Assembly: GCA_963811165.1 (NCBI GenBank)
Contig: CAWEQH010000004.1
Span: forward strand, 352,001-416,000
Length of the DNA: 64,000 nucleotides
Direction of reading: 5' to 3'
From: an uncultured Nitrospiraceae bacterium
Lineage (GTDB): Bacteria; Nitrospirota; Thermodesulfovibrionia; Thermodesulfovibrionales; UBA6898
Shown here: positions 3,937-36,461 of the stretch, one piece after another
Layout: every line of letters begins with the position of its first letter
Numbering within the stretch: the first letter of the stretch is position 1
Made by a program: the position numbers and the translations under genes
The notes under the pieces: generated by a model
The model's database searches: none
What the model was told of the DNA's origin: nothing
The model's input: the letters and a program-made list of their open reading frames with translations, nothing else

Positions 3937-5237
3937 TAAACGTAGGGATTATAGGATTTGGAACAGTAGGAACAGGGACTGCAAGCATCCTCTTAAAAAA
4001 CAGAGACCTTCTACGGGAAAGGACCGGTGTCGACATTAACCTAAGGAGGATAGCGGACCTCGATACCAAAAGGGACAGGGGTATCAGGCTCCCAAAGGGG
4101 GTCCTTATCGCCAAGGCGGAGGAACTCCTCGGTGACCCGGATATCCATATAGTGGTCGAACTCATCGGCGGCACGACGGTCGCAAAAGACCTGATACTCA
4201 AGGCAATCAATAGCGGCAAACATGTTGTCACGGCGAACAAGGCCCTTCTTGCCACTTACGGGGCTGAGATATTCAGGGCAGCGGGCAAACGGAACGTCGA
4301 GTTGGGGTTTGAGGCGTCTGTTGCCGGAGGTATCCCTATTGTAAAGGTCATCAGGGAGGGACTTGTGGCCAACAGGATAAAGGCGGTGTACGGCATCATC
4401 AACGGCACCACTAACTATATCCTTACTAAAATGACAGAGGAAAAGGCGGAATTTGCCGAAGTCCTGAGGGAGGCACAGAAGCTCGGTTATGCGGAGGCAG
4501 ACCCTACCTACGATATAGAGGGGATAGACTCGGCCCACAAACTCGCAATCCTTGCCTCGCTCTCTTACGGACCCCGGTTCAGCGTCAAGGACGTGTACCG
4601 TGAGGGCATCTCCTGGATTTCCCCGATGGACATAGAATTTGCCCGCGAGCTCGGATATAAGGTCAAGCTTCTGGCGATAGCAAAAGAGTCCGACGGCAAA
4701 GTCGAGTTGAGGGTCCACCCCACGATGGTACCGGAGGAATATCTCATTTCAAAGGTTGACGGCGTATATAACGCTGTCTACGTAGAAGGTGACGCCGTGG
4801 GTTCGACCCTTTATTACGGCAGGGGCGCCGGGGACATGCCTACGGGGAGCGCGGTCGTCAGCGATATCGCAGAAATAGCGAGAAATATCGTCACCAACTC
4901 CGTCGGGAGGATCTCGCTGGACTCTTCCCGGAGGGCCAAGAATCTCATGAAGATGGACGATGTCCAGTCTATGTATTACTTCAGGTTTTCTGCGATTGAT
5001 AAACCGGGCGTATTATCGAAGATCTCCGGAATACTAGGTAAGTATAATATAAGTATTGTTTCTGTCATCCAGAAGGGCCGGCGAGAGGGGAAGGCCGTGC
5101 CGCTCGTCGTCCTTACCCACAGGGCAAAGGAAAAAAATGTCCTTGCTGCGCTCAAGGAGATAAACAGGCTTTCTATGGTGGCGGACAAGAGCGTTTTTAT
5201 CAGGGTTGAAGGGAAAGAGGGAGACCGGCAGCCCTAA
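3933..5237 (+). CDS. hom: Homoserine dehydrogenase with ACT domain
   Basis: [31 protein letters not shown]-terminal ACT domain (DKPGVL). Confidence 0.96.
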
Positions 5238-5239
5238 AT

Positions 5240-5499
5240 TATAGAACCATACGGTGGACATCCCCTTCGCTCGGGTTATTCCCTCGCGATGGGGAACCTT
5301 GTCCTCGTATGGCTCCAGAATAACTAATTGCGATACCCCAGATTCGGGAAACCCTGAGCTTTTTTATAATATGGGTGCTTCGATAGATGCTTCAGGCTTC
5401 CTCTTTCGAGGCATGCTCACCACATCCAACTCCCGCTCCCTAAACTCAGTAGCTTGATCCTCTGGTTTACCCGCCCGGGGTAACGCAAGCTCTCTTTCT
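5240..5499 (-). ncRNA. Structured ncRNA with 6S-like core (copy A)
   Basis: Own sigma70 promoter; long rod 5328..5488 plus second rod 5244..5315; core shared with 28438..28512. Confidence 0.7.
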
Positions 5500-5505
5500 A
5501 ATTTC

Positions 5506-5534
5506 ATTGTAGCTCGCTATTATGGATTCGTCAA
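5506..5534 (-). promoter_or_regulatory. Sigma70 promoter of ncRNA copy A
   Basis: TTGACG-17 bp-TACAAT on the minus strand; no credible downstream CDS. Confidence 0.75.
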
Positions 5535-28187: not shown

Positions 28188-28216
28188 TTGACATCCTTCC
28201 AGGAAAGGAATATAAA
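28188..28216 (+). promoter_or_regulatory. Sigma70 promoter of ncRNA copy B
   Basis: TTGACA-17 bp-TATAAA, preceded by a CTCAAAATATT x2 direct repeat. Confidence 0.8.
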
Positions 28217-28221
28217 TAAAT

Positions 28222-28565
28222 TGAAGGCAGACTTCACCAAGTGGTGGTTTTGCTCTTCTCAGTTCAGCATTAAAGGTTTAGGACTGAAGAACGTTATGCC
28301 TGGATGAAGAAAAGTTCTGGCAAATGTTCACAAGGTGCTTAAACCGCTGGGCAAGGGAAGAAGCAAACACCACTTTTAAGCAGAAGGAAGTCAATGCCTT
28401 GGAATGGGTTAAGGCTTAGAACTAAGTCAATTGGTTAGGAAGCGGGAGCAAGATGTGGTGAGCAAGCCCCCAGCAGCAAGGGGGAAGCCTAAAGCATCTG
28501 CCGAAGCATCCACTAAAAAAGACTCTAAGGATACCCAGCACCAAGGTGTTGTACTTCTTTTTTTT
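28222..28565 (+). ncRNA. About 340-nt structured ncRNA with 6S-like core (copy B)
   Basis: Nested stems 28224-35/28387-400 and 28239-60/28355-75; second rod 28405..28537 carries the shared core; ends with hairpin and T-run. Confidence 0.72.
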
Positions 28566-28602: not shown

Positions 28603-28812
28603 ATGGCGGAAACAATAATCTATGGCAAGGCGGGTTGACCCTATACCGACAGGGCTAGGTCAGCCTACAACACAGCACAATATTTTGATGTGAAACAAGA
28701 CCCCATTAGACTTCAGGAAATGCTCCTGCATTCCAAAGGAGCCAGGAAAGTACCAGTCATTGTTGAAGGCGGCAAAGTATCAATAGGTTATGGGGGATCG
28801 TGAGGGGTTTGA
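28603..28812 (+). CDS. UXX-star type glutaredoxin-like selenoprotein with two Sec (69 aa)
   Basis: RBS GGAGG; MAETIIYGKAG-U-PYTDRARS...RKVPVIVEGGKVSIGYGGS-U-GV*; UGA at 28636 and 28801. Confidence 0.85.
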
Positions 28813-35648: not shown

Positions 35649-36461
35649 TTAGAGTATCCCAACTACCTTTTCCTCTTCAAGCCTTATGAATTCAGCTGGC
35701 GTCAGATCGCCCAGGGAGCTATGGGGCCGCTCGTTGTTGTAATCAAGCCGATAGTCTTCAGCTATAGCACGGGCATGTCCCACGCTTATGAACCAGTTGA
35801 GATTCAGGCATTCGTCCCTGAACTTGCCGTTGAAACTCTCCATGTACGCATTATCTCCCGGCTTTCCGGGGCGGATGAAATGGAGTTTGATGCCTCGCTC
35901 ATATGCCCATGCATCCAAAGCGTTACTGATGAATTCAGGGCCATTGTCCACGACAATCTTCTCGGGGAGTTCCCGAAGAGCCGCTATTTGGCTCAAAACA
36001 GCACAAACCCGTTTGCCGCCAATCGATGTATCGACTTCGATCTTTAAGCACTCCTTTGTGTAGGTGTCAATGATCGGCAAAAATCTCAATTTCCTCCCGT
36101 TATGCAAAGCATCATGCAGAAAATCCATCGCCCAAAGCTCGTTCGGCCGTGTGGCCTTCTCTACGTCAATCCTCCCTTGGGCAGCCAGTTTCTTCCTCCT
36201 GCGAATCCGTAGTGCGAGTTTCTCTTCCTTGTACAGCCGCTCTGTGCGCTTATGATTTACGACCAAACCTTCTCTTTTAAGCAGGACGTGAAGCCTTCGA
36301 CATCCAAAACGCCTCCTTTGTTCGGCGATCTCCTTCATCCGAATCCGGAGCTCCTCATCTTCATCCGGCCCTGGTTCGTATCGTAAAATGTTTCTGCTTA
36401 ATCCAATAAGCCGACTTGCTCGTCTTTCGCTCAGCCCAAAGCAGTTGATGATATGCTCCAC
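35649..36461 (-). CDS. IS3 transposase OrfB (DDE)
   Basis: WAMDF, VDNGPEF, PGKPGDNAYMESFNGKFRDE; joined to OrfA by a frameshift at the A6C run 36491..36497. Confidence 0.95.
   Translation of the reverse strand: MEHIINCFGLSERRASRLIGLSRNILRYEPGPDEDEELRIRMKEIAEQRRRFGCRRLHVLLKREGLVVNHKRTERLYKEEKLALRIRRRKKLAAQGRIDVEKATRPNELWAMDFLHDALHNGRKLRFLPIIDTYTKECLKIEVDTSIGGKRVCAVLSQIAALRELPEKIVVDNGPEFISNALDAWAYERGIKLHFIRPGKPGDNAYMESFNGKFRDECLNLNWFISVGHARAIAEDYRLDYNNERPHSSLGDLTPAEFIRLEEEKVVGIL

Follow-up and report, generated by a model that had tools for sequence, protein, structure and literature searches.

The stretch of DNA analysed here (the window) comprises 64,000 nucleotides (nt) of contig CAWEQH010000004.1, from an uncultured Nitrospiraceae bacterium of the order Thermodesulfovibrionales. 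Its forward strand carries a non-coding unit in which a rod-shaped small RNA, which we call M1, is followed directly by 6A, a divergent paralogue of 6S RNA. The unit extends from about 28224 to a T-run at 28558-28565 and holds no gene-like reading frame; an earlier note, made from the letters of the window, had read it as one two-domain RNA sharing a 6S-like core with a second RNA 23 kb away. The features of the unit are as follows.

28189..28217, forward strand: promoter, with TTGACA at 28189-28194, a 17-nt spacer and TATAAA at 28212-28217; the predicted start is at about 28224-28226.
28224..28238, forward strand: single-stranded 5' tail of M1, AAGGCAGACTTCACC, unpaired in the fold and aligned with homologues.
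28239..28375, forward strand: M1, rod-shaped small RNA (fold z-score -5.9; 39 homologues aligned; without Rfam match).
28275..28345, forward strand: M1 helix P3, GGTTTAGG / CTTAAACC, with the part that it encloses (minimum free energy folds; alignment columns 60-67 / 125-131).
28374..28385, forward strand: shortened M1 T-run (TTTT) and linker AAGCAGAAG, from T counts after helix P1.
28386..28558, forward strand: 6A, divergent 6S paralogue with closing stem, central bubble and apical stem (Rfam RF00013; consensus of 27 homologues; z-score -5.3).
28421..28433, forward strand: 5' strand of the 6A central bubble, ACTAAGTCAATTG, with the adjoining block TTAGAACTAAG that recurs in 6A homologues (columns 48-60).
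28437..28512, forward strand: core common to 6A and the second RNA, AGGAAGCGGGAG ... GATGTGGTGAGCAAG, a CCCCC/GGGGG hairpin, then AAGCCTAAAGCATCT .. CGAAGCATCCA (by reading and Rfam).
28514..28523, forward strand: 3' strand of the 6A central bubble, TAAAAAAGAC (unpaired columns 144-154).
28558..28565, forward strand: T-run after the 6A closing stem, a predicted intrinsic terminator (by reading).

The promoter is present as first read, and homologous loci keep a TTGACA box at equal distance. A consensus promoter scan did not list it, because the scan rule demands T at position 6 of the second hexamer and TATAAA ends in A; between 27900 and 28900 the same scan, under the rule that misses this main promoter too, listed no promoter-like site inside the unit. 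The unit folds into two independent domains. The 345-nt stretch has a minimum free energy (MFE) of -136 kcal/mol, as compared to -96.9 +/- 5.0 for shuffled sequences (z-score -7.8, with none of 100 shuffles as good), and the M1 and 6A halves make no contact in this fold. When folded alone, 28224-28380 reaches -60.2 kcal/mol (z-score -5.9), and 28382-28562 has a z-score of -5.3. The long nested helix AAGTGGTG..TTTGCT.CTTCTC / GGGAAG.AGCAAACACCACTT described for the 5' domain can be read there. The strands GGTTTAGG (28275-28282) and CTTAAACC (28338-28345), which had been suggested to form a pseudoknot, turned out to be an ordinary nested helix of the rod that appears in the plain MFE fold.

At Rfam gathering scores, the whole window returned tRNA only. 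In a permissive scan, 28388-28556 matched the 6S model RF00013 over its full length (positions 1-187) at 40.4 bits (E-value 9.6e-7), and 5372-5440 on the minus strand, within the second RNA, matched model positions 59-132 only, at 32.3 bits (E-value 7.6e-5); both lie below the curated gathering score of 46.4 bits. The core that the earlier note had called 6S-like is hence part of a 3' domain that fits the entire 6S model. Searching the genome itself (3.66 Mb, 10 contigs) with this model gave four places: a canonical 6S RNA on contig C10 (77.2 bits), the two loci of the window (6A with an E-value of 1.4e-6 in this search) and a close paralogue of 6A on contig C8 (41.6 bits).

The 27 distinct homologues of 6A, referred to as type A, share a consensus fold of 49 pairs, 7 of them with compensatory changes; because the sequences are close kin, this covariation support is only moderate. 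The consensus is a rod running from a closing stem through a short helix, a central bubble of 13 nt opposite 10 nt (unpaired columns 48-60 and 144-154), a GGA/UCC helix and an inner stem to an apical hairpin. In the closing stem 97.6% of cells are paired, compensatory changes occur at 2 pairs, and none of 500 shuffles reaches its pairing or covariation score. Type A thus has the form of a 6S rod, which is about 150-200 nt long with a closing stem, a large bubble and an apical stem. Like 6S RNA (SsrS, RF00013), 6A itself is a rod of ~175 nt with these three elements and a full-length model match, and it carries the 6S blocks GGGAGC ... GGUG.GCA.G ... AAGCCU.AAGC ... GCACCCA. Most of the 27 copies have a T-run behind the closing stem (L052 lacks it). 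One 6A copy, L117, breaks off after the apical hairpin.

Reading the two loci side by side confirmed the common core (28437-28512 and 5372-5441, the latter on the minus strand), its change from GGA/TCC to GGG/CCC and the two different apical hairpins that the earlier note had pointed out; the GGA/UCC pair also varies within type A (AU in 20, GC in 3 and GU in 2 sequences; columns 67/138). From its resemblance to 6S RNA, 6A is predicted to bind housekeeping RNA polymerase, and 28406-28433 would be the candidate template strand for product RNA (pRNA) synthesis.

6A also differs from 6S RNA, in that it is sub-threshold (40.4 versus 46.4 bits), is an extra gene beside a canonical 77.2-bit copy, turns up in a pattern search in only 9 of the 54 family genomes (5 of 16 genera, a count that includes one doubtful match with 3 mismatches on the strand opposite to a nearby M1), and appears to be usually transcribed behind another small RNA. 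The low score, the patchy distribution and the canonical 6S RNA in the same genome would suit a 6S copy that is decaying or has been re-purposed, having lost its binding to RNA polymerase and serving another function or none. We see only a slim chance of this, as sequence and fold are closely conserved from genus to genus, with short branches in the tree, the promoters are of consensus type, and the RNA is found in contigs from RNA libraries.

The second RNA, which spans 5489-5236 on the minus strand as a whole, has three features.

5506..5534, minus strand: promoter TTGACG, 17-nt spacer, TACAAT (consensus scan, 10/12 matches).
5329..5489, minus strand: 6S-like RNA, named type B (Rfam 6S positions 59-132; homologues).
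5236..5318, minus strand: 3' domain closed by CTGGAGCCATA / TATGGTTCT, then ATAATTT (fold; 14 further loci).

Homologues of type B in other genomes match the whole 6S model at 28-55 bits, and three of them exceed the gathering score (54.7, 49.5 and 46.7 bits), so the second locus belongs to a family of 6S paralogues. Among 41 related genomes, 40 gave a 6S match, above threshold in 37, and many gave one to three extra weak matches; those that were fetched sort by reading into two kinds, type A and the more widespread type B. Behind the 6S-like part of type B there is no T-run. In its place stands a helix, CTGGAGCCATA / TATGGCTCT, around 60-115 variable nt and followed by ATAATTTT, both in the window and in 14 further loci (L035, L036, L037, L040, L043, L044, L045, L050, L051, L053, L054, L057, L059 and L060). 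The interior of this 3' domain varies between genera, and permissive Rfam scans of the window locus and related loci gave no match to it.

In a maximum-likelihood tree of 59 sequences (17 canonical, 15 type B and 27 type A), canonical 6S RNAs separate from A plus B with support of 100/100, and types A and B form groups with 97/80 and 96/75, respectively. The tree thus places 6A and type B as the sister group to the canonical 6S RNA of the same genomes, and therefore the shared covarying core reflects homology between two sister classes of 6S paralogues. As judged by these comparisons the clade keeps three 6S-type classes, two of which carry predicted extra structured domains.

We turn now to the 5' domain. 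In relatives M1 is usually a free-standing small RNA of ~135 nt with its own TTGACA promoter, closing helix and T-run. Its closing helix P1, of ~20 base pairs (bp), is formed by AAGUGGUG-GU-UUUGCUCUUCUC / GGGAAGAAGCAAACACCACUU, with P2, P3 and an apical hairpin further inwards, and a widely conserved CACC stands directly before the rod in the M1 alignment. Searching for the closing-helix pattern in contigs of one genome per species gave 35 places, which comprise 29 true M1 copies and 6 chance matches that, by reading, sit within coding DNA of other phyla. All true copies but one (28/29) are in records of Nitrospirota/Thermodesulfovibrionales, and 22 of the 29 have no 6S-like RNA behind them. 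Nearly all such lone copies have their own TTGACA-N17 promoter, a 5' tail of ~15 nt and the same ~20-bp closing helix, followed by T5-7 and ATT/GTT, which is the form of an intrinsic terminator. Within the family, a search allowing at most 2 mismatches finds the pattern in 32 of 54 genomes, which belong to 10 of 16 genera and have 1-5 copies each; the reversed-pattern control gave 0.

One long rod is predicted for every M1 copy. MAFFT and RNAalifold applied to all 39 copies recovered the closing helix only, because the interiors of two subtypes misalign, and the copies were therefore split. Subtype I (13 sequences) then gave 39 consensus pairs, 7 of them compensatory, and subtype II (23 sequences) 38 consensus pairs, 3 of them compensatory. 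The closing helix is almost invariant, in part because copies were found through its pattern; those found from the 6A side carry the identical helix sequence. Permissive Rfam scans of both window loci and 12 related loci gave nothing credible for M1, which by these data is a putative small-RNA family not catalogued previously.

Its own genome holds three M1 copies, in the window, on C8 and on contig C1, and two copies of 6A. The earlier note had considered that the core might belong to a many-copy miniature inverted-repeat transposable element (MITE). We rejected this for M1 and 6A alike because there are only 3 M1 copies in the genome, and the TTGACA promoters are conserved.

Some M1 loci have peculiarities of their own. 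The copy on C1 (L133, 1390-1590, minus strand) is a lone M1 that has a promoter of its own and a T6 terminator; a ferritin-like gene on the same strand follows 178 nt downstream. In relatives, same-strand M1-M1 tandems, 214-275 nt apart, are present at G045:C4:166045/166259, G047:C17:33917/34144, G050:C67:9381/9656 and G017:C192:8072/8319. At L087, L099 and L102 a conserved small open reading frame (M.ILD.LYN.LTRKVQIANKDITREIVEDWVG...) lies 47-104 nt upstream of M1 on the same strand, and the M1 copy of L099 is decayed, with neither promoter nor T-run. In the window, the CACC of the tail can pair with GGUG of P1 (28234-28247) to form a small hairpin followed by TTTTGCTCTT, which was flagged by the terminator scan; it is possibly a transient alternative to the closing helix.

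The layout of promoter, structured RNA and terminator raises the question of whether M1 could be a cis-acting leader, in which helix and T-run form a conditional terminator, riboswitch- or attenuator-like, that gates 6A here and protein genes elsewhere. Among 23 lone copies, 11 have a same-strand gene with a ribosome-binding site at most 260 nt away (26-178 nt on), several of which leave no room for a promoter, and on C8 a selenoprotein gene begins ~25 nt past the M1 terminator. The small hairpin of tail CACC and P1 GGUG would offer an alternative pairing. The other 12 lone copies, however, have no such gene; the downstream genes are functionally unrelated (ferredoxin, ferritin, membrane protein, small proteins, phosphoribosyltransferase), and genes adjoining lone M1 copies revealed no convincing common theme. 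Furthermore, the terminator helix joins both ends of the whole RNA and hardly varies, with no obvious competing expression platform, and Rfam gave no riboswitch match. We therefore regard a leader role as rather improbable; M1 looks more like a trans-acting or protein-binding small RNA.

The way in which M1 and 6A are joined was compared over 26 distinct loci, counted from the 6A side, with the following arrangements.

15/26 loci: M1 fused directly to 6A, as in the window.
3/26 loci: M1 with full terminator, a ~55-nt spacer with a second promoter, TTGACA-N17-TACGAT, then 6A.
1/26 loci: a gene between M1 and 6A (own genome, C8).
2/26 loci: only a remnant of M1 before 6A.
5/26 loci: 6A without M1.

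6A occurs alone with its own promoter in some loci, or as a separate gene behind M1. In the own genome, M1 and 6A are fused in the window and separated by a gene on C8, and M1 stands alone on C1. On C8 (L002, reverse complement 940-1680) the order is promoter, M1, full terminator, selenocysteine (Sec)-glutaredoxin gene, promoter, 6A and terminator. At L115 most of M1 has been lost before 6A, and L122 has the same sequence.

In the window, and in 15 of these 26 loci, only 2-5 T remain of the M1 T-run, spacer and 6A promoter are absent, and 6A comes directly after M1. The number of T in the 9 nt after P1 has a median of 5 in fused copies (range 3-6, n = 14) versus 8 in unfused ones (n = 21); no formal test was applied to these counts because the copies are kin. 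Only 2 T follow the helix in L090 and L113, and likewise, by reading, in L118.

The earlier note had also proposed an outermost stem, AAGGCAGACTTC/GAAGTCAATGCCTT (28224-28235 with 28387-28400), which would tie the start of M1 to 6A. This stem exists in the window and is not conserved: in 14 fused homologues 71.9% of cells pair, there are 0 compensatory changes, and an equally high score is reached by 480 of 500 shuffles. The outermost stem competes for bases with the 6S closing stem, whose 5' strand makes up the 3' arm of the former. The tail AAGGCA is also present in lone M1 copies without 6A behind them.

These results bear on the possibility, favoured in the earlier note, that the two domains act as one functional RNA in which M1 modifies the 6S-like part through its sigma specificity, a second factor or its stability. 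The fusion is kept in 15 of the 26 loci and in several genera, read-through would be obligatory where only 2 T remain after P1 (L090, L113, L118), type B likewise carries a constant extra domain, and contigs from RNA libraries bridge the junction. However, both parts occur as separate genes elsewhere, the own genome included, and no pairing is conserved between the domains, given an outer stem that lacks covariation and competes with the 6S closing stem. A back-joint in an RNA contig, described below, also sets a 5' end at CAGAAG, between the modules, as would fit cleavage. We thus consider a single functional RNA unlikely, if still deserving attention. The proposal of a modular family with accessory domains holds as far as modularity is concerned (22/29 lone M1 copies, lone 6A, the 3' domain of type B); what fell was M1 as an appendage evolved on the 6S-like RNA, as M1 is evidently an independent gene that was joined on.

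Transcription of the locus was approached through metatranscriptomes. Six runs contain small shares of the stretch, and contigs of four of them (X15-X18, from 3 studies) were placed on it. They cover 28340-28548 and are 85-99+% alike. Several contigs bridge the M1 3' strand into 6A, among them X15 record 1 (28359-28479), X16 record 9 (28359-28512), X18 record 23 (28350-28418, 0 mismatches, 2 indels) and X18 record 24 (28350-28414). No contig covers 28150-28225 or 28264-28339, which is not evidence of silence, because the M1 interior differs between relatives and contigs drop much. Beyond 28567, X17 and X18 give no cover, and X15 and X16 have one low-depth contig each over the selenoprotein gene. 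We conclude that the M1-6A locus is real and conserved, and that it is probably expressed.

Two contigs, from different studies, contain back-joints. In X17, 28376 is followed by C and then by 28234, so that the M1 3' end runs back into the 5' region of M1 (...CACCACUU-C-UCACCAAGUGG). This record is 169 nt long and has the same letters at its end as at its start, which would be expected of a de Bruijn cycle of ~138 nt. In X16, 28546 leads through GTGTTGTACTTCTTCAGAA to 28387, with the 6A joint ...GUACUUCUU-CAGAAGAAGUC. Both back-joints would cap a terminal helix with a loop of 3-7 nt. They could reflect circles, tandem DNA of a relative, or template switching by reverse transcriptase where small RNAs are abundant. 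A gene for RtcB ligase is present in the genome. That M1 and the 6S-like RNA exist at least partly as covalently closed circles, viroid-like rods encoded by DNA, one of them an RNA polymerase decoy, is an idea to which we give little credence.

Downstream of the unit lies one further gene of interest.

28603..28803, forward strand: glutaredoxin-like selenoprotein gene, 66 amino acids (Pfam PF00462, E-value 1.9e-6, with TGA read as U).

Its ribosome-binding site stands ~25 nt after the 6A terminator, and its UGA (28636-28638) is within the stem GGTTGACC / GGTCAGCC (28630-28662), by eye a hairpin like the bacterial selenocysteine insertion sequence (SECIS). The paralogous Sec-glutaredoxin gene between M1 and 6A on C8 is 82% identical over 61 amino acids. 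The earlier note had offered as an alternative that the whole RNA is the 5' leader of this gene. The consensus scan found no promoter-like site between the 6A terminator and the gene, and the paralogue on C8 is directly behind M1. On the other hand, 6A ends in a strong stem and T8, and when 133 loci were compared a selenoprotein gene adjoined M1 or 6A at only two places, both in the own genome, which makes this leader role very improbable.

The other neighbours are ordinary chromosomal genes, including two-component systems, HU, a Coa1-like protein, an AsnC-type domain, LigB, TatA and FMN reductase. An IS3-family transposase (rve, rve_3 and HTH_21 domains) is at 35649-36461 on the minus strand, 7 kb downstream of the RNA. 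The suggestion that the locus is in an accessory island accordingly agrees with the patchy 6A pattern (9/54 family genomes) and not with these neighbours, among which the transposase is the one element of its kind.

Our interpretation builds on what was observed about homology, fold, modularity and the range of arrangements, and on the RNA contigs that bridge the junction. With somewhat better than even confidence, we propose that one transcription unit joins two separately evolving RNA genes, M1 and 6A, that 6A is likely an RNA polymerase decoy, and that the shortened terminator lets polymerase read through. The M1 promoter would drive the fused RNA, with polymerase passing the weakened M1 terminator into 6A. 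6A would then occupy the housekeeping RNA polymerase holoenzyme as a mimic of an open promoter. The long RNA would be the primary transcript, maybe cut into M1 and 6A, and the residual terminator of T4-5 may set the ratio of short M1 to long M1-6A.

Several points weigh against this proposal. 6A of the window is under the RF00013 gathering score (40.4 versus 46.4 bits), as are all type A copies scored (30.9-41.6 bits). The M1 structure leans largely on conserved sequence, with compensatory changes at only 7/39 and 3/38 pairs and a closing helix that hardly varies. Many fused copies retain T5, and the M1 terminator may therefore still stop most transcripts. The RNA contigs come mostly from relatives; they are assemblies, from which neither starts and ends nor strand and level can be read, and DNA may be present in RNA libraries. 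Finally, the genes with ribosome-binding sites within 260 nt of 11/23 lone M1 copies would fit a leader role.

Comparison with known systems helps to place the locus. In E. coli, 6S RNA is made as a precursor whose long 5' extension is later removed, and ssrS is co-transcribed with the downstream ygfA. The M1-6A locus is similar in having a 5' extension before 6S and a protein gene directly downstream without evident promoter. It differs in that the extension is a conserved, independently encoded small RNA with a remnant of its own terminator, and in that the downstream gene is a selenoprotein glutaredoxin, placed there in the own genome only. Mycobacterial Ms1 is a 6S-like structured RNA of ~300 nt tied to RNA polymerase, which has one continuous fold and is not known to match the 6S model, whereas the present locus joins a true 6S homologue to a separate module. 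M1 by itself recalls bacterial Y RNA (YrlA), in which the Ro protein binds a helix that is formed by the 5' and 3' ends and has a small bulge, as M1 has a long, nearly invariant end-to-end helix with a small bulge. Unlike Y RNA, M1 has no tRNA-like domain and no Rfam Y RNA match. The idea was rejected because the own genome, at 95.4% completeness, gave no match to a TROVE/Ro gene.

More than one 6S-type RNA per genome is known from Bacillus subtilis, whose 6S-1 and 6S-2, as far as the accessible text of the reports describes them, have different sequences and a common fold (PMC3923129, PMC4793215, PMC10578484). Here, as compared to that pair, there are three classes (canonical, type B and type A) and four genes in one genome. 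Two of these classes have an additional structured domain, and the accessible text of the same reports mentions none for the Bacillus pair (PMC3923129, PMC4793215, PMC10578484). In a literature search combining 6S RNA with Nitrospirae or Thermodesulfovibrio, the listings, whose coverage leaves out most subscription journals, returned only other subjects.

One clade, of the Nitrospirota order Thermodesulfovibrionales, keeps three 6S-type classes. Two of them are mostly sub-threshold in Rfam, and annotation pipelines that apply the threshold would therefore miss most copies. As a global regulator of bacterial transcription, 6S RNA has been well studied, and it is usually regarded as one self-contained RNA, or as two at most. 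As several 6S RNAs per genome were already known from Bacillus, what is new here is 6S paralogues with extra domains, one domain being a new small-RNA family apparently added by gene fusion. M1 adds a small-RNA family whose pattern is found in 32/54 family genomes, and its joining to a 6S paralogue would have come about by loss of terminator tail, spacer and promoter, with all intermediate arrangements still found. M1-6A may thus serve as a concrete, testable case of how a composite regulatory RNA originates, and the clade as a system for asking whether 6S paralogues serve different forms of the polymerase.

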